Positions 2,332-20,470 of a DNA stretch of 20,470 nt are shown piece after piece. The DNA comes from a virus (lineage: Duplodnaviria; Heunggongvirae; Uroviricota; Caudoviricetes), in the IMG/VR virus record IMGVR_UViG_2585427735_000017; one strand, written 5' to 3'. Each line of letters begins with the position of its first letter. Position 1 is the stretch's first letter. Under the pieces are notes generated by a model that ran no database searches, was not told the DNA's origin, and worked only from the letters and a program-made list of their open reading frames with translations. The translations under genes were made by a program, and so were the position numbers.

Positions 2332-3471
2332 ATGGCTGGAAATACCCTGACCGGGTTGATCCCGACTATTTATACCGCCCTGGATGTTGTATCCCGTGAG
2401 CAGGTAGGTTTTATCCCTGCGGTAGCAAAAAACGCAAAAGCTGACGCCGCAGCAAAAGATCAGACGGTAACCGCGCCAGTTGCGCCTGAGGCGAAAACCG
2501 AAGATATCGTACCGGGGCCGTCAGCTCCGAATACCGGTGATCAAAATATTGGCACTGTTGATGTAAAAATTACTAAATCCAAAATGGCACCGGTTAAATG
2601 GAATGGTGAAGAACAACTGGCTCTTGGCCCTTCAGGGACTTACAACACCATTCTGGCTGATCAGTTCAAGCAGGCTTTTCGCGCCCTTGCAAACGAGGTT
2701 GAGGCTGATCTTGGTGCGTTGTATTTCGGTGCTTCCCGCGCCGTGGGAACCGCAGGGACAACGCCGTTTGGTGTTAAAGATGATCTTTCTGATGCTGCTC
2801 TGGCTCGTCAGGTTCTGGAGGATAACGGCGCACCGACAACCGATCTGCAGATGGTGCTTGGCTCCACTGCCATTGCTAATTTGCGCGGAAAACAGTCTGT
2901 ATTGTTTAAAGTGAATGAATCCGGCACTGAACAGCTACTGCGTGAGGGCGTGTTGGGGCGTCTGGAGGGATTCAATATTCACAGTTCGGCAGGTGTGAAA
3001 CGAGCGCCAAAGGTTGCTGCAACTGGTTATCTCGTGAATGGAGAGAAAAAAGAAGGCGATGTTCTTATTTCCATTGATACTGGTTCGGGGAGTATTTCTG
3101 CAGGTCAGATTGTTACGTTCGCTGGTGATCCGAATCAGTATGTTGTGGCAGCAGCGACCAGCAATCTGATTACTCTTGCAGCGCCCGGACTGCGTCAGGA
3201 TCTGGCCGATGATACTGCCATCACAGTTGTTGGGGCCTTTACGGCAAATATGGCGTTTGATCGCAACGCGTTTCTGCTGGCATCCCGTACTCCGGCAATG
3301 CCGGAAGGTGGCGATAATGCTGATGATGTAATGAATGTTACGGACCCGATTTCAGGGATTACGTTCCAGATTGCACTGTATCGTCAGTATCGCCAGGTGC
3401 GCTATGAAGTTGGACTGGCATGGGGTGTTTCATCAGTGAAGCCGGCACATGGTTGTCTGATTCTTGGTTAA
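2332..3471 (+). CDS. Major capsid protein (family not identified)
   Basis: 379 aa ORF starting MAGNTLTGLIPTIY, with AAGGA ribosome-binding site about 10 nt upstream of ATG 2332, followed by a hairpin terminator; placed between scaffold-like and connector genes. The track start at 2239 has no ribosome-binding site. Confidence 0.7.
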   Translation: MAGNTLTGLIPTIYTALDVVSREQVGFIPAVAKNAKADAAAKDQTVTAPVAPEAKTEDIVPGPSAPNTGDQNIGTVDVKITKSKMAPVKWNGEEQLALGPSGTYNTILADQFKQAFRALANEVEADLGALYFGASRAVGTAGTTPFGVKDDLSDAALARQVLEDNGAPTTDLQMVLGSTAIANLRGKQSVLFKVNESGTEQLLREGVLGRLEGFNIHSSAGVKRAPKVAATGYLVNGEKKEGDVLISIDTGSGSISAGQIVTFAGDPNQYVVAAATSNLITLAAPGLRQDLADDTAITVVGAFTANMAFDRNAFLLASRTPAMPEGGDNADDVMNVTDPISGITFQIALYRQYRQVRYEVGLAWGVSSVKPAHGCLILG

Positions 3472-3481
3472 ACATTCAAAC

Positions 3482-3501
3482 GGGGCTTCGGCCCCATTTT
3501 T
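3482..3501 (+). terminator. Hairpin plus T-run after capsid gene (putative attenuator)
   Basis: GGGGC-TTCG-GCCCC stem-loop (5 bp stem, UUCG tetraloop) followed by ATTTTT, 11 nt after the capsid stop. Confidence 0.45.
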
Positions 3502-7049: not shown

Positions 7050-7169
7050 TTGTTAATTACGTACACTCTGTTACAGAGATGTGATGGTGTCTTTAATTAA
7101 ATCGATGATGCTCCTGGAGAAAAGCATTGCGTGACCTCGTAATCGCTATATCTACTATTATGTCGCCTG

Positions 7170-7194
7170 AAACCCACTTCGCGGTGGGTTTTTT
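7170..7194 (+). terminator. Rho-independent terminator-like hairpin upstream of the tape measure gene
   Basis: AAACCCAC-TTCGCG-GTGGGTTT stem (8 bp) running into TTTTTTG, about 20 nt before the AGGAG ribosome-binding site and ATG 7215. Confidence 0.5.
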
Positions 7195-7214: not shown

Positions 7215-7841
7215 ATGGCAGAGCAAACCTCGCGTCTCGCAATAATTATTGATAGCACTGGAGCGAAAAATAATGCTGACAATCTGACCTCCTCATTAGT
7301 CAAAATGACGCAGGCTGGGGAAACTGCTGCAAATAGCGCAGGGAAAGTGACTAAGGCAACAGAAGATGAGAAGAACGCGCTCGCAAAATTAAAAGCAGCT
7401 ATTGATCCAGTTGGTGCCGCAATTGATACTGTCGGTCGACGCTATTCTGAATTAAAGAAATTTTTCGATAAAGGGCTTATTGATAAAGAAGAATATGAAT
7501 TTCTTGTCCGTAAACTTAATGAAACCACAGAGGAATTGAGCGGGGTTGCGCAAGCGCAGAGAGAAGCCGAGAAGGCCGGAAAACTTGCTGCCGCCCAGCA
7601 GGAAGCGCAGGCTCAGGCCTTTCAAAGAATGCTGGACAAGATCGACCCTCTGGCTGCGGCGCTAAGAAATCTTGAACAACAGCATGATGAACTTAATGCT
7701 GCGTTTGCATCCGGGAAAATAAATGGTTCTCAGTTTGAGAATTATAGCCGAAAAATACAGGAAACACGGCGAGAGCTTACCGGAGAGGCTCAGGCAGAGC
7801 GAGAAGCAGCAAAAGCGCATGATGAAGATGCTTTCTCCTGA
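7215..7841 (+). CDS. Tape measure protein, N-terminal coiled-coil segment (frame A), ends in premature stop
   Basis: 208 aa ORF with AGGAG ribosome-binding site; Ala/Glu/Gln/Lys-rich with repeated heptad-like motifs ([18 protein letters not shown] / [17 protein letters not shown]). Overlaps the main tape measure frame by ~120 nt. Confidence 0.6.
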
Positions 7842-10341
7842 AATGTATGAGGAGCTTTCTGGAAAACTTCGTGCTATGCGGAGTGAGCTTGAGGTTACTC
7901 AATCACAATTAAGCAAAACCGGAATGTCGGCAAAACAAACGGCTTTTGCTATGCGCATGTTGCCTGCACAAATGACGGATATTGTTGTTGGGTTGTCCAC
8001 TGGTCAGTCGCCATTTATGGTGTTAATGCAGCAGGGCGGCCAGCTAAAAGATATGTTCGGTGGGATTGGCCCGGCGATCAAAGGTGTAGGTTCTTATGTG
8101 CTGGGATTAATTAATCCTTTTACCCTGGCCGCAGCAGCCGTTGGGGTCTTAGGACTGGCTTACTATAAAGGCTCTCAGGAGCAGGACGAATTTAATAAAT
8201 CTCTTATTCTTACCGGAAATCAGTTGGGGACAACCAGCGGGCAATTGGGCGATATAGCTCAACGTGCCGGGAATGCGGCTGATTCGACAACTGGTGCTGC
8301 GGCGGCAGTATTAAATCAGCTTGTGCGTTCGGGAAAGGTAGCGAGCAGTTCGCTGGAGCAAGTGACGACAGCGATAGTAAAAACGAGCGAAGTAACAGGA
8401 ATATCAACCGAACAACTGGTTAATGACTTCAATGAAATTGCAAAGGATCCTGTCAGTGCCATATCAAAACTTAATGATCAGTACCATTTTCTGACACTTG
8501 CGACTTATAACCAGATTAAGGCGCTACAGGATGAAGGGAACCAGCAGGAGGCCGCCCGCATTGCGACAGAAGAATACTCATCCTCAATGATCCAGCGCAC
8601 CAACCAGATTAAAGAAAATCTTGGTTATCTTGAGACTGCATGGAAAGCTGTCGCAGACTCCGCAAAATGGGCATGGGATTCCATGCTGGATATTGGCCGT
8701 GAGGCCTCCCTTGATCAAAAAATCTCAGATGTTCTCCGTCAAATTGATGAAATAGAAAAAAATCCCCGACCCGGAGTTTTCGGGTTAGGTGGCATTGGAG
8801 ATGGCGGAGCTCAAAATAAAAGGCTGGCACGATTAAAGCAGCAATTGGGCGTACTTCAAGCAGAAAAAATTGCTCAGGACGTACTAAATTCATCAATAAA
8901 CGATTACAACAAGCGACAACAGGAAGGAATTGAACTCAGACAGAGAGCAGATGCCTTTTCAAAACAATATCAGACCCGGGAGCAGCAGAGAGCTAGTGAA
9001 CTTGCAAAACTGGAAAAGCTAAAGAATCAGTATTCAAAGGAAGAATATAATAATCTTATCGCTCAAATAAATGAGCGTTATAAAGATCCAAAGCAACCAA
9101 AGGCGAAAGGTTATTCTGATGATGCAGCCCAACGAATGATTGATCATCTGAATCAACAGAATGCGTTACTAAGTTCACAAGCTGAGTTGACCGTTAAATT
9201 AAGTTCCTCTGAACAGGAACTGGTTAAGTGGCGTCAGCGGATTGCCGACCTAGAGTCACGACCATCATCGAAATTAACCCAGGATCAGAAATCGCTTCTC
9301 TTCCACCGGGAAGAAATAACCGCGTTGATGGAGAAAAATGTTGCGATTGAAAAGAATAACAGGCTAATCAAGGAATCCGCCGAAATAACAGCATGGCGTG
9401 ATTCATTGCAGGCTTCGATTGATAATCGTCAGCAGGGGTATGATATTCAGATTGCTGGTTATGGGGTTGGCGATAAAAATCAGCAACGCCAGCAGGAATT
9501 ACTGCGGATTGAACATGGATATAACAATCAGCGTCTGCAACTTGAACGTGACTATGCAGATAAATCCCGTGGAATGTCAGATCATGTTTTTCAAGAGAAA
9601 ATGCAGGCTCTGAATGATGCTCTGGAACGGGAAAAAGAAATTGTCAGACAGAAAAACGAGCAACTCGATATTCAGGCAGGAGACTGGGTTAGTGGTGCCT
9701 CCCAGGGATTCAATAACTGGCTGGATGACACTAAGGATATCAGTGAGCAGATAAAATCAACCACGACTCAGATGTTTGATGGGATGACCGATGCGCTGGG
9801 TGATTTTGTCACGACAGGCAAGGCAAATTTTCGTTCTTTCGCTACTTCCGTGATTTCGGATCTTAGTCGAATGGCATTAAAGGCTTCAATTACTGGGATT
9901 TTCGACAGCATTAGTAACAGTTCTTCTGGGGGGATTTTAGGAACTATCGGGAGTGCTATTAGTAAATTTATTCCGAATGCAAAGGGCGGTGTTTATGAGT
10001 CTCCGTCATTGAGCACGTATTCGAACGGTATTTATGATTCCCCGCAATTTTTTGCTTTTGCAAAAGGGGCTGGTGTTTTTGGTGAGTCTGGACCGGAAGC
10101 CATTATGCCATTAACACGAACTTCCGATGGTTCTCTTGGTGTCAGAGCTATTAATAGTAAAAGTGGTAATGGAGGCGGAGATATTACCTATGCCCCTGTA
10201 TACCAAATCACTATTCAAAATGACGGCCAGAATGGAGAGATTGGCCCTCAGGCAATAAAAGCACTTATGGGGATGGTTGATCAGCGGGTGCAGGGCAATC
10301 TGTTAAATATGCGACGTGATGGGGGAATATTAAGTGGCTAA
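7723..10341 (+). CDS. H: Tail length tape measure protein (lambda H-like), main frame B
   Basis: 872 aa ORF; [41 protein letters not shown] and the C-terminal [35 protein letters not shown] match recalled lambda H motifs. ATG 7723 is only the first ATG after a stop in this frame; the true N-terminus is probably the 7215 ORF. Confidence 0.85.
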
Positions 10342-11375: not shown

Positions 11376-12119
11376 ATGACAGAGACAGAATCAGCGATTC
11401 TGGCGCACGCCCGGCGATGTGCGCCAGCGGAGTCGTGCGGCTTCGTGGTGAGAACGCCGGAGGAGGAAAGATATTTTCCCTGCGTGAATATCTCCGGTGA
11501 GCCGGAGGCGTATTTCCGGATGTCGCCGGAGGACTGGCTGAGTGCAGAAATGCAGGGAGAGATTGTGGCGCTGGTCCACAGCCACCCCGGTGGTCTGCCC
11601 TGGCTGAGTGAGGCCGACCGGCGGCTGCAGGTACAGAGTGATTTGCCGTGGTGGCTGGTCTGCCGGGGGGCGATTCATAAATTCCGCTGTGTGCCGCATC
11701 TCACCGGGCGGCGCTTTGAGCACGGGGTGACGGACTGTTACACGCTGTTCCGGGACGCTTACCATCTGGCGGGAATTGAGATGCCGGATTTTCATCGCGG
11801 GGATAACTGGTGGCGTCACGGTCAGAATCTCTATCTGGATAATCTGGAGGCCACAGGGCTGTATCAGGTGCCGTTGTCAGCGGCGCAGCCGGGCGATGTG
11901 CTGCTGTGCTGTTTTGGTTCATCGGTGCCGAATCATGCCGCCATTTACTGTGGTGACAGCGAGCTGCTGCACCATATTCCTGAACAACTGAGCAAACGAG
12001 AGAGGTACACCGACAAATGGCAGCGACGCACACACTCCCTCTGGCGTCACCGGGCATGGCACGCATCTGCCTTTACGGGGATTTACAACGATTTGGCCGC
12101 CGCATCGACCTTCGAGTGA
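11376..12119 (+). CDS. K: Tail tip assembly protein K (JAB/MPN plus NlpC/P60 domains)
   Basis: 247 aa ORF; MTETESAILAHARRCAPAESCGFVV...HSHPGGLPWLSEAD (HxHx7Sx2D JAMM motif)...DCYTLF...NHAAIYCGD (NlpC/P60-like Cys/His). The lambda-annotated K start corresponds to ATG 11520 (199 aa) by my recollection of lambda coordinates. Confidence 0.9.
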   Translation: MTETESAILAHARRCAPAESCGFVVRTPEEERYFPCVNISGEPEAYFRMSPEDWLSAEMQGEIVALVHSHPGGLPWLSEADRRLQVQSDLPWWLVCRGAIHKFRCVPHLTGRRFEHGVTDCYTLFRDAYHLAGIEMPDFHRGDNWWRHGQNLYLDNLEATGLYQVPLSAAQPGDVLLCCFGSSVPNHAAIYCGDSELLHHIPEQLSKRERYTDKWQRRTHSLWRHRAWHASAFTGIYNDLAAASTFE

Positions 12120-12664
12120 AAACGGGGTCCGAAGCCATCCGGGCGCTGGCCATGCAGATCCCGGCATTTCGTCAGAAACTGAGCGACGGCTGGTACCAGG
12201 TACGCATTGCCGGGCGTGATGCAGGTGAAACTGAATTGTCTGCCCGTCTTAATGAGCCGCTGGAAAATGGTGCCGTGATCCACATCGTACCGCGTCCGGC
12301 GGGTGCTAAAAGTGGCGGTATTTTTCAGGCAGTGCTGGGGGCGGCGCTGATTGCGGTTGCATGGTGGAACCCTGTGGGCTGGCTGGGGGCCACGGCTGTA
12401 TCGGGTATGTATGCGGCAGGGGCCAGTATGATCCTGGGCGGTGTGGCGCAGATGTTGGCACCGAAAGCCAGGACGCCCACGGCAGCCAGTACAGATAACG
12501 GCAAACAGAACACGTATTTCTCGTCACTGGATAACATGGTTGCCCAGGGCAATGTTCTGCCCGTTCTGTACGGTGAAATGCGCGTGGGGTCGCGGGTGGT
12601 CTCTCAGGAGATCAGCACGGCAGACGAAGGGGATGGTGGTCAGGTTGTGGTGATTGGTCGCTGA
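12017..12664 (+). CDS. I: Tail tip assembly protein I
   Basis: 215 aa; MAATHTLPLASPGMARICLYGDLQRFGRRIDLRVKTG...NVLPVLYGEMRVGSRVVSQEISTADEGDGGQVVVIGR matches lambda I; overlaps the 3' end of K by ~100 nt in another frame, as in lambda. Confidence 0.9.
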   Translation: MAATHTLPLASPGMARICLYGDLQRFGRRIDLRVKTGSEAIRALAMQIPAFRQKLSDGWYQVRIAGRDAGETELSARLNEPLENGAVIHIVPRPAGAKSGGIFQAVLGAALIAVAWWNPVGWLGATAVSGMYAAGASMILGGVAQMLAPKARTPTAASTDNGKQNTYFSSLDNMVAQGNVLPVLYGEMRVGSRVVSQEISTADEGDGGQVVVIGR

Positions 12665-12683
12665 TGAAAAACGTTTTATGTGA

Positions 12684-12703
12684 AACCGCCTCCGGGCGGT
12701 TTT
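12684..12703 (+). terminator. Terminator-like hairpin between I and J (weak)
   Basis: AACCGCC-TCCG-GGCGGTT stem-loop followed by TTTTG, about 20 nt before the J ribosome-binding site. Confidence 0.35.
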
Positions 12704-12721
12704 GTCGTTTATGGAGCGTGA

Positions 12722-16120
<3,399 letters not shown>

Positions 16121-16138
16121 ATTTTATAACCCAGAACG

Positions 16139-16162
16139 GGCGTCAGAAATGACGCCTTTTTT
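16139..16162 (+). terminator. Rho-independent terminator between the J region and lom
   Basis: GGCGTCA-GAAA-TGACGCC (7 bp stem, GAAA loop) followed by TTTTTT. Confidence 0.6.
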
Positions 16163-16186
16163 ATTGCAGAAAAGCGAGAGGTAATT

Positions 16187-16786
16187 ATGCGTAAACTTTA
16201 TGCCGCCATTTTGTCCGCAGCCATTTGTCTGGCCGTATCCGGTGCGCCTGCATGGGCGTCTGAACATCAGTCCACGCTGAGCGCGGGGTATCTTCATGCC
16301 CGGACGAACGTTCCCGGCAGCGATGATCTTAACGGGATTAACGTGAAATACCGTTATGAGTTTACGGACACACTGGGGCTGGTGACGTCATTCAGCTATG
16401 CAGGAGACAAGAATCGCCAGCTTACCCGTTACAGCGATACCCGCTGGCATGAAGATTCCGTGCGTAACCGCTGGTTCAGCGTGATGGCGGGGCCGTCTGT
16501 ACGCGTGAATGAATGGTTCAGCGCGTATGCGATGGCGGGTGTGGCTTACAGCCGTGTGTCGACTTTCTCCGGGGATTATCTCCGCGTAACTGACAACAAG
16601 GGGAAAAAGCACGATGTGCTGACCGGAAATGATGACGGTCGCCACAGCAACACGTCTCTGGCGTGGGGGGCTGGCGTGCAGTTTAACCCGACCGAGTCCG
16701 TGGCCATTGATGTCGCTTATGAAGGTTCCGGCAGTGGCGACTGGCGCACTGACGGTTTCATCGTGGGTGTCGGTTATAAATTCTGA
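16187..16786 (+). CDS. lom: Lom outer-membrane protein (Ail/Lom family beta-barrel)
   Basis: 199 aa; signal peptide [24 protein letters not shown]; C-terminal [23 protein letters not shown] matches the lambda Lom C-terminus; GAGAGG ribosome-binding site. Confidence 0.92.
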
Positions 16787-16812
16787 TTAGCCAGGTAACA
16801 CAGTGTTATGAC

Positions 16813-16839
16813 AGCCCGCCGGTTCAGGCGGGCTTTTTT
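16813..16839 (+). terminator. Rho-independent terminator after lom
   Basis: GCCCGCC-GGTTCA-GGCGGGC stem-loop followed by TTTTTT, ending 11 nt before the stf ATG. Confidence 0.6.
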
Positions 16840-16850
16840 GTGGGGTGAAT

Positions 16851-19800
16851 ATGGCAGTAAAGATTTCAGGTGTACTGAAAGACGGCACAGGAAAACCGGT
16901 ACAGAACTGCACAATCCAGCTGAAAGCAAAACGTAACAGCAACACGGTGGTGGTGAACACGCTGGCCTCAGAAAATCCGGATGAAGCCGGGCGTTACAGT
17001 ATGGACGTTGAGTACGGGCAGTACAGCGTTATTCTGTTGGTGGAGGGATTCCCGCCGTCACATGCCGGGACCATCACCGTGTATGAAGATTCTCAACCCG
17101 GTACGCTGAATGATTTTCTCGGTGCCATGACGGAGGATGATGCCCGTCCGGAGGCACTGCGACGTTTTGAACTGATGGTGGAAGAGGTGGCGCGTAACGC
17201 GTCCGCGGTGGCACAGAACACAGCAGCCGCGAAGAAGTCAGCCAGCGATGCCAGCACATCAGCCCGTGAGGCGGCAACCCATGCGACTGATGCTGCAGGC
17301 TCAGCACGCGCAGCCAGCACGTCAGCCGGACAGGCCGCGTCGTCGGCTCAGTCAGCGTCTTCCAGCGCAGGAACGGCATCAGCAAAGGCCACTGAAGCAT
17401 CAAAAAGTGCTGCCGCTGCAGAGTCCTCAAAAAGCGCGGCGGCTACCAGTGCCGGTGCGGCGAAAACGTCAGAAACGAATGCGGCAGCGTCACAACAATC
17501 AGCAGCCACTTCTGCATCCACCGCGACCACGAAAGCGTCAGAAGCAGCCACTTCAGCACGGGATGCGTCGGCTTCAAAAGAGGCGGCAAAATCATCAGAA
17601 ACGAACGCAGCCTCGAGCGCCAGCAGCGCAGCTTCCTCGGCTACGGCGGCAGGAAATTCCGCGAAGGCGGCAAAAACGTCCGAGACGAACGCCAGGTCTT
17701 CTGAAACGGCAGCGGAACAGAGTGCCTCCGCAGCAGCAGGCTCAAAAACAGCGGCTGCGTCGTCTGCCAGTGCCGCGTCAACAAGTGCCGGGCAGGCCTC
17801 AGCCAGTGCCACCGCCGCCGGAAAATCGGCAGAAAGCGCCGCATCGTCTGCTTCAACAGCCACAACGAAGGCTGGCGAAGCCACTGAACAGGCCAGCGCA
17901 GCAGCGAGGTCTGCTTCCGCAGCGAAGACATCCGAAACGAATGCGAAAGCGTCGGAAACCAGTGCAGAATCCTCAAAAACGGCAGCCGCATCGTCCGCCA
18001 GTTCGGCGGCGTCATCGGCATCATCTGCGTCTGCTTCAAAAGATGAGGCGACCAGACAAGCGTCAGCAGCGAAGGGCAGCGCCACGACAGCATCCACGAA
18101 GGCGACAGAGGCAGCTGGCAGTGCGACGGCGGCAGCACAGAGCAAAAGTACGGCGGAATCCGCGGCAACGCGCGCTGAGACAGCGGCAAAACGGGCAGAG
18201 GATATTGCATCCGCCGTGGCGCTTGAGGATGCGAGCACGACGAAAAAGGGGATAGTACAGCTCAGCAGTGCGATCGACAGCACTTCCGAGTCACTGGCGG
18301 CAACGCCAAAAGCAGTTAAGGCCGCGTATGACCTGGCTAACGGGAAATACACCGCACAGGATGCAACGACAGCACAGAAAGGGATAGTCCAGCTAAGCAG
18401 CGCGACCAACAGCACGTCTGAAACGCTGGCGGCAACGCCAAAGGCAGTAAAAGCAGCCAATGACAATGCTGAGAAACGTCTGCAGAAAGATCAGAACGGT
18501 GCGGATATCCCTGGCAAAGACACCTTTACGAAAAATATTGGTGCCAGCCGTGCCTTCGGTGGGTCAGTAAGCACAACAACAGGAGACTGGACGACTGCAC
18601 AGTTTATCGAGTGGCTGGATTCTCAGGGAGCATTTAACCATCCATACTGGATGTGCAAGGGTTCCTGGTCTTATGGCAATAATAAAATCATTACTGATAC
18701 TGGCTGCGGTAATATTCATCTCGCCGGAGCTGTCATTGAAGTAATGGGGATAAAGTCAGCGATGACGATCCGCATTACCACACCGACCACCTCCACTGGT
18801 GGTGGAACAACTAACGCCCAGTTTACCTATATTAATCACGGAACAGATTATTCACCTGGCTGGCGAAGGGACTATAACTCCAGAAATAAGCCAACGGCAT
18901 CAGAGATCGGGGCGTTACCGTCAGGTGGAACAGCAGTATCATCAGTTAATCTGGCTTCAAAAGGTCGGGTAATCGCGCTGACAGACAATACGCAGGGGGC
19001 AACAGGTCTTGAGTTATACGAGGTGTATAACAACGGATATCCAACAGCGTATGGAAATATCATTCACCTGAAAGGGATGACAGCCGTTGGCGAAGGTGAG
19101 TTACTCATCGGCTGGAGTGGTACAAGCGGTGCTCATGCTCCGGCATTTATTCGTTCACGACGGGATACGACCGACGCAAACTGGTCGCCGTGGGCGCAGC
19201 TTTACACCTCAGCTCATCCTCCTGCAGAGTTTTATCCAGTCGGTGCACCAATCCCGTGGCCATCAGATACCGTTCCGTCTGGCTATGCCCTGATGCAGGG
19301 GCAGACTTTTGACAAATCTGCTTACCCGAAACTTGCAGCCGCTTATCCGTCAGGCGTGATCCCTGATATGTGTGGCTGGACGATTAAGGGCAAACCTGCC
19401 AGTGGTCGAGCCGTATTATCTCAGGAACAGGACGGCATTAAATCGCACACCCACAGCGCCAGCGCATCCAGTACGGATTTGGGGACGAAAACCACATCGT
19501 CGTTTGATTACGGCACTAAATCCACGAATAACACCGGGGCACATACACACAGTGTGAGCGGCTCTACAAACTCGGCTGGAGCACACACACACTCACTAGC
19601 CAACGTGAACACGGCTAGTGCTAACTCCGGTGCTGGTAGTGCATCAACAAGATTGTCTGTTGTGCATAATCAAAACTATGCAACATCATCTGCTGGCGCA
19701 CATACCCACTCACTGTCCGGCACTGCTGCAAGCGCAGGTGCACACGCACATACTGTCGGTATTGGTGCTCATACGCACTCCGTTGCGATTGGTTCACATG

Positions 19801-19886
19801 GACACACCATCACCGTTAACGCTGCTGGTAACGCGGAAAACACCGTCAAAAACATCGCATTTAACTATATTGTGAGGCTTGCATAA
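16851..19886 (+). CDS. stf: Side tail fibre protein Stf
   Basis: About 1011 aa; N-terminal [30 protein letters not shown], long Ala/Ser/Thr-rich repeat region, tandem KGIVQLSS...ATPKAVKAA repeats, and a C-terminal array of GAHTHS (HxH) motifs ending [12 protein letters not shown], as I recall for lambdoid Stf/StfR. ATG 16851 preferred over the track GTG 16845. Confidence 0.9.
18246..18479 (+). repeat. Tandem 132 nt (44 aa) repeat inside stf (about 1.8 copies)
   Basis: [44 protein letters not shown] followed by [34 protein letters not shown]; the copies start 132 nt apart (18246 and 18378). Confidence 0.7.
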
Positions 19887-20470
19887 TGGCATTCAGAATG
19901 AGTGAACAACCACGGACCATAAAAATTTATAATCTGCTGGCCGGAACTAATGAATTTATTGGTGAAGGTGATGCATATATTCCGCCTCATACAGGTCTGC
20001 CAGCAAACAGTACCGATATTGCACCGCCAGATATTCCGGCAGGCTTCGTGGCTGTTTTCAACAGTGATGAGGCATCGTGGCATCTCGTTGAAGATCATCG
20101 GGGAAAAACCGTCTATGACGTGGCTTCCGGCGACGCGTTATTTATTTCTGAACTTGGCTCGTTACCGGAAAATGTCACCTGGTTATCGCCGGAAGGGGAA
20201 TATCAGAAGTGGAACGGCACAGCCTGGGTGAAGGATACGGAAGCAGAAAAACTGTTCCGGATCCGGGAGGCGGAAGAAACAAAAAACAGCCTGATGCAGG
20301 TAGCCAGTGAGCATATAGCGCCACTTCAGGATGCTGTAGATCTGGAGATCGCAACGGAGGAAGAAACCTCATTGCTGGAAGCCTGGAAAAAATATCGGGT
20401 GTTGCTGAACCGTGTTAATACAACAACTGCACCGGATATTGAATGGCCAACAGTACCCATTATCGAATAG
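19886..20470 (+). CDS. tfa: Tail fibre assembly protein Tfa
   Basis: 194 aa; [79 protein letters not shown]... matches lambda Tfa by recollection; the start overlaps the stf stop (TAATG) and the stop is the last codon of the window. Confidence 0.92.

Follow-up and report, generated by a model that had tools for sequence, protein, structure and literature searches.

The intact lom gene of the window (the whole 20,470-nt stretch of DNA analyzed here) lies between two intrinsic-terminator hairpins in what is probably the usual J-lom-stf part of a late operon of the lambda type, where it would be transcribed mainly together with its neighbors by Q-antiterminated polymerase. The window itself is a defective Rac-like prophage. 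An earlier note on this DNA had described the same region as the classic moron layout. The two terminators on which that description rested were confirmed, but the layout was not, since the order of elements is terminator-gene-terminator here as opposed to the promoter-gene-terminator order of a moron. The features of the region are collected in the table.

Intrinsic terminators were scanned for on both strands of the window using a strict definition (stems of 7 bp or more that include 5 or more G-C pairs, followed by 6 or more T among 7 nt), and just these two hairpins qualified. The chance expectation for such terminators, estimated from 100 dinucleotide shuffles, was 0.03-0.04 per strand. 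Both hairpins are intergenic and on the + strand, and both carry the intrinsic-terminator signature of a G+C-rich stem directly followed by a T-run. The upstream hairpin, GGGCGTCA-GAAA-TGACGCCT at 16138-16157 with a T-run at 16157-16162, folds at -14.7 kcal/mol (z = -6.4), and the downstream hairpin, AGCCCGCC-GGTTCA-GGCGGGCT at 16813-16834 followed by TTTTTT, folds at -18.2 kcal/mol (z = -4.0); in each case 0 of 200 shuffles folded as well. The scan, the fold z-scores, and the shuffle expectation all support the placement of lom between two hairpin-plus-T-run terminators. The distance from the end of the upstream T-run (16162) to the lom ATG (16187) was 24 nt, in agreement with the roughly 25 nt given earlier. 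On the other side of the gene, the ATG of stf, which is annotated as stfR or side tail fiber in relatives, follows 11 nt past the T-run of the downstream terminator. Weaker terminator-like hairpins with T-runs were also observed in intergenic + strand gaps, one at 3482-3495 behind the capsid gene and one at 7169-7192 ahead of the tape-measure gene. Because stf and other gaps of the operon are built alike, a terminator placed before a gene is better regarded as a feature of the late operon than as a mark of autonomy.

Features of the J-lom-stf region of the window (positions are those of the whole 20,470-nt stretch)
Feature	Position	Strand	Details
J tail tip pseudogene	12725..16120	+	open frame 12725-15778, 1017 aa, ends early
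Conserved non-coding motif TTATAACCC	16124..16132	+	between J stop and upstream hairpin
Predicted upstream intrinsic terminator (J's)	16138..16165	+	stem 16138-16145 / 16150-16157, GAAA loop, T-run TTTTTTATT
lom leader	16166..16186	+	Shine-Dalgarno GAGAGG at 16176-16181
lom (Rac-type lomR), intact	16187..16786	+	199 aa; single ORF of region 16121-16850
Mosaic joint in lom 3' end	16690..16735 (approximate)	+	sliding identity versus lambda, and alignment
Predicted downstream intrinsic terminator	16813..16839	+	stem 16813-16820 / 16827-16834, T-run 16834-16839
stf (stfR-like), side tail fiber gene, intact	16851..19886	+	Pfam phage_tail_N, Phage_fiber_2, Collar

The identity of the gene was examined by profile and structure searches. 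The Pfam profile PF06316 (Ail_Lom) covers residues 1-199 of the 199-residue lom product, with a score of 399.4 bits against a curated cut-off of 23 (E = 3.7e-120). In a search of the PDB, the product aligned with the lambda Lom structure 9wso_C (E = 1e-49) and with the structures of OmpX and Ail (E about 1e-18). An apparent signal peptide, consisting of MRK, a hydrophobic core, and AWA/SE, was recognized by eye in the translation at about 16187-16258; residue 26-29 of the product is where the mature OmpX and Ail chains begin aligning. The C-terminus reads GVGYKF and ends in the aromatic residue typical of outer-membrane barrels. Membership in the Ail/Lom family (PF06316) is therefore indicated both by the full-length profile match and by the signal peptide and C-terminal aromatic residue, and the Pfam and PDB matches uphold the earlier naming of the gene as lom, with a signal peptide and an Ail/Lom C-terminus. 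The product is predicted to be an eight-stranded outer-membrane barrel of the Ail/Lom/OmpX type. The same barrel family includes Ail of Yersinia, OmpX of E. coli, and Rck/PagC of Salmonella, although these are encoded on chromosomes or plasmids and have regulated promoters of their own, whereas the window lom is found in a phage late operon and the surface loops of its product differ. Mean pairwise dN/dS across 99 distinct intact sequences of the lom family was about 0.19, and purifying selection acts across the family. In the window copy, S148N is the only private substitution, and there are no signs of decay. The solved lambda Lom structure (PDB 9wso, chain C) comprises 206 aa; lambda J and Stf, which were checked as candidate Lom partners, are absent from entry 9wso, and a literature search found no paper for this entry.

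According to PMC3594210, a moron is added DNA of distinct GC content that has its own promoter and terminator and is expressed from the repressed prophage. If lom were an autonomous moron, it would be insulated, would carry a constitutive promoter at the J end (about 16090-16140), and would act as a conversion factor for adhesion or serum resistance. Lambda Lom has been described as a moron product expressed from the prophage (PMC3594210, PMC7067206, PMC1151598), lambda lom is dispensable for plaque formation (PMC10695390), and the site after J hosts the cor moron in HK022 and is without lom in HK97; the terminator downstream of lom and the purifying selection on the Ail/Lom family are likewise consistent with this explanation. 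Among the moron features that can be tested on sequence, however, the downstream terminator alone was found at lom. A consensus scan detected no sigma-70-like site on the + strand across 12000-20470, a result that a non-consensus or activator-dependent promoter would escape, and a -35/-10 weight-matrix scan of the window and lambda yielded nothing above background and no candidate at corresponding positions in both. Within 15950-16186, the top candidate of the weight-matrix scan (-35 at 16085, -10 at 16108) ranked 159th on the + strand of the window; it sits upstream of the terminator and has no lambda counterpart. The promoter that had been expected to overlap 16090-16140 was thus not recovered by either scan. 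Moreover, any transcript begun in this interval carries the full hairpin and U-tract ahead of the lom Shine-Dalgarno sequence and would meet the terminator first. Because just 24 nt separate the T-run from the ATG, a lom promoter, if any, would be located upstream of or inside the terminator.

Composition and layout also argue against autonomy. The GC content of lom (56.0%) is not atypical, showing no contrast with J (56.3%) or stf (55.2%), the layout of a terminator followed by a gene is shared by stf, no close relative was found without lom, and one array study saw no lom in lysogens (PMC2147009). Compared with morons such as HK97 gp15 and HK022 cor, lom is similarly accessory, dispensable for plaque formation, situated in the tail region, and followed by a terminator, but it differs from them in having no recognizable promoter, no GC contrast, and no presence/absence polymorphism among the close relatives sampled. 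Taking both sides, an autonomous moron is rather unlikely. The Phi24B small RNA 24B_1, which is located downstream of lom, was considered and found not to be relevant, as its authors describe lambda-type regions as lacking it (PMC4426718).

The sequence between J and lom was compared across 154 lom loci, comprising viral contigs, the window, and reference phages. Among these loci the upstream stem was found in the forms GCGTCA/TGACGC, GCACCA/TGGTGC, and GCGCCA/TGGCGC. In an alignment of 18 distinct variants of the window type, two pairs have substitutions in both partners (G-C to A-U and C-G to U-A, 9 cells), and 97.9% of the cells in the stem are paired, compared to 33-61% with the 3' partners slid. 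The observed covariation score was reached by 0 of 500 shuffles, and the slid controls scored 0. Because compensatory changes keep its stem paired, the upstream hairpin is a selected RNA structure. The stretch from the T-run to the ATG, by comparison, is identical across the 18 variants, barring a single lost nucleotide in the T-run. Still other stems occupy this position in lambda and in a third Lom type (about 62% identity to lambda Lom). Stem variants segregate together with the receptor-binding allele of J, which marks the hairpin as the terminator of J and part of the J module; on this evidence the boundary between the J and lom modules is placed at the upstream T-run.

It is also conceivable that the hairpins serve mainly as 3'-end stabilizers or processing barriers that set the ratios of the J, lom, and stf messages. 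Similar hairpins in other gaps of the same operon (3482-3495 and 7169-7192) would fit such a role, as would the conservation of the upstream stem in structure and not in sequence. The full terminator signature with its six conserved T's points the other way, since a stabilizer would not need a T-run, and the roles of stabilizer and terminator are not exclusive. Stabilization as the main function is accordingly regarded as very unlikely.

The short motif between the J stop and the upstream hairpin, TTATAACCC, is retained in all J-end variants, and as TTATTAACCC in the second Lom type, while neighboring bases vary. The motif was not found in lambda, it scored as a poor -10 element in the weight-matrix scan, and a search for a conserved pairing partner found none. 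A leader structure that sequesters the Shine-Dalgarno sequence was rejected, as the consensus fold of nine diverse leaders supports just the terminator hairpin. A scan of the window revealed no Rfam family in or near the lom region; the sole Rfam match in the window was RF02111 (IS009) at 20229-20427 on the + strand (225 bits), inside the tfa ORF at 19886-20470.

The arrangement in the window is shared with phage lambda. In lambda (NC_001416, 18.9-19.7 kb) the order is likewise J-lom-stf (orf-401), and one hairpin with a T-run precedes lom by about 25 nt while a second precedes stf by about 16 nt. The upstream hairpin of lambda has a different stem and a weaker U-tract than that of the window, and the receptor-binding domain of J differs, whereas the stretch from the 3' end of lom across the terminator to the start of stf has about 97% nucleotide identity to the window. 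The Lom proteins (206 aa in lambda, 199 aa in the window) are 46% identical. Nucleotide identity to lambda is about 40-50% on the 5' side of a joint at 16690-16735 and at least 90% on its 3' side, and from about 16730 the last ~20 lom codons, the terminator, and the start of stf are 90-100% identical to lambda DNA. Such a change from divergent protein to lambda-like DNA indicates a mosaic joint inside lom, and because the joint falls within the last ~30 codons, the units of exchange coincide with neither the gene nor the terminators. The downstream terminator is nearly unchanged behind all three Lom types, lambda included, and is too conserved for a covariation test. Judging from these alignments, it belongs to a conserved block that joins the 3' end of lom to the 5' end of stf.

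Within the Rac prophage of E. coli K-12, the fragments of lomR (b4570) are 98.6% and 96.2% identical to window positions 16391-16600 and 16598-16861, respectively, and stfR, tfaR, and pinR are found downstream. The K-12 gene occupies the same place in the same prophage family as the window lom. The K-12 lomR is without its first ~204 nt and the upstream region and is split by IS5, whereas the window copy is complete and retains its upstream terminator. Since the K-12 fragments map onto it, the window lom represents the intact form of lomR. K-12 was rejected as a source of start-site data because its lomR is without the 5' end and upstream region.

The presence of lom among relatives was assessed in two samples, each comprising the 80 best matches of a scan (one anchored on the stf N-terminus, the other on the J receptor-binding region) and therefore biased to close relatives. 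In the stf-anchored sample lom was present upstream of stf in 77 of 80 loci; two of the others end at contig ends and one has a putative IS200-like element in the way, leaving 77 of 77 informative loci. In the J-anchored sample lom was present downstream of J in 78 of 80 loci, the other two of which stop at contig ends (78 of 78 informative). Within these samples, the gene is fixed in the window's clade of close relatives. At one locus (IMGVR_UViG_2563366879_000003, 2600-3000), foreign DNA, a putative IS200-like element, was observed directly before stf in place of lom, and this locus keeps the stf leader from window position 16834 onward. Of 5,426 complete E. coli genomes, 4,891 contain a match to the lom segment, and the median copy number per genome is two. 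The gene is missing after J just in distant lambdoids: J is followed by stf in HK97 and by the cor moron in HK022, and the flanking genes of neither phage can be aligned with the window. HK97 was dropped as a comparator without lom, and no clean insertion boundary can be drawn from it, because its J-stf spacer and stf N-terminus are non-homologous. A coupling of Lom type to the receptor-binding type of J was also rejected, with a correlation of just 0.25; tight matching of Lom and J is not evident, as one Lom type (median 96.5% identity) adjoins at least three divergent J C-termini that represent different receptor-binding types.

From position 1387 on, the window is 99.5-99.9% identical to the prophage at the Rac site of E. 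coli M8; the downstream order in M8 is tfaR, pinR, ydfK, uspF, and ompN. Positions 1-1386 are occupied by an IS4 that is 99.4-99.6% identical to E. coli IS4 copies. Its transposase, on the minus strand, is open for 446 codons and runs off the start of the window, and the element abuts the late region at 1387, between the M8 positions of the minor-head-protein gene and the DUF6651 gene. Compared to M8, a deletion of 107 bp at 7826/7827 shifts the frame of the tape-measure gene (ORFs 7215-7841 and 7723-10341); this is a second inactivating lesion, independent of J. The J gene is indeed broken, as had been claimed: measured against the intact copies of PhiR30_1 and E. coli M8, one nucleotide is missing at each of three sites (15705, about 15940, and about 15954), none of them within a homopolymer, and an in-frame stop at 15776-15778 cuts off the receptor-binding domain. 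Because the three deletions sum to 3, the reading frame is restored for the last ~55 codons, which end with the TGA at 16118-16120. Pfam J domains were detected in 12725-15778, and the Ig_GpJ_C receptor-binding domain just in the fragment 15917-16120. These J lesions were found in 0 of 5,426 complete E. coli genomes, where the best match was 97.6%. Assembly error as their source is disfavored by the adjacent 6.4 kb, which is 99.92% identical to a relative with no gaps, and by the open IS4 transposase frame, and the deletions are probably real.

Given these defects (the IS4 at the left edge, the tape-measure deletion, and the three J deletions), lom might be no more than a silent relic that is intact by chance in a dead prophage, with terminators inherited without present function. 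About five lesions in ~19 kb would spare a 600-nt gene with a probability of about 0.85, so the intactness of lom is not evidence of selection. The importance given earlier to lom having been kept intact beside a broken J is consequently not upheld. Furthermore, truncated lom (160 or 166 aa) was present in 4 of 100 distinct J-lom combinations of relatives, indicating that lom is lost now and then in prophages, and the K-12 copy is destroyed. The lone private substitution without decay in the window copy and the purifying selection on the family count against a relic, which is considered unlikely.

In the late-operon reading favored here, Q-antiterminated polymerase would ignore both hairpins and lom would be carried in the late transcript. 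Read-through of both terminators is expected because the virion genes stf and tfa lie behind both, and the 11 and 24 nt that follow the T-runs leave no room for a promoter. Without antitermination, both hairpins would hold transcription of the lom region low. Any lom expression in the repressed state would then be basal, its source being either a leaky upstream terminator or a weak promoter that departs from the consensus. Q and pR', if the defective prophage still has them, would lie outside the window, and IS4 sits at the left edge of the late region; both points count against this reading. Lambda lom is strongly expressed in the lytic cycle (PMC9836094), and a passage in PMC12366544, citing Liu 2013, has Lom rising dramatically late in infection, with a level in the lysogen too low to exclude lambda-vir. 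Transcription of lambda lom in lysogens has been reported (PMC1151598, PMC7067206), while lom was undetected there in the array study (PMC2147009). Such transcription in lysogens would imply some Q-independent promoter and counts against the read-through model. The upstream hairpin of lambda is weaker than that of the window (centroid -8.1 kcal/mol, U-tract UUUUAUUAU), and leakiness may therefore differ between phages.

A related proposal, which we consider doubtful, is that lom is promoterless and that the upstream hairpin with its U-tract acts as a leaky attenuator; it would set a low level of Lom in the lysogen until Q overrode it in the late phase of infection, at which point Lom would benefit the phage. 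Overexpressed lambda Lom was described in 2025 as a strong, lambda-specific phage defense, and the authors suggest a late role against re-adsorption (PMC12366544). Under attenuation, late Lom might block re-adsorption of progeny in the way they suggest, and the motif TTATAACCC could take part in that control. If this proposal were true, lom would be a regulated late gene and not a lysogenic-conversion moron.

With regard to function, a contribution of Lom to adhesion or serum resistance is a reasonable expectation from its family and from lambda Lom (PMC3594210), and lysogenic conversion by lom is plausible by the same analogy. The gene lom/lomR, its position between J and stf, and its accessory status in lambdoid prophages are already known from lambda and Rac. 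The arrangement is textbook material and the segment is common to most complete E. coli genomes, so that the present example matters little in itself. The conserved terminator directly before the gene narrows the possible location of any promoter behind the expression of lom that has been reported in lysogens. More generally, flanking terminators alone do not identify a moron in a Q-antiterminated late operon.
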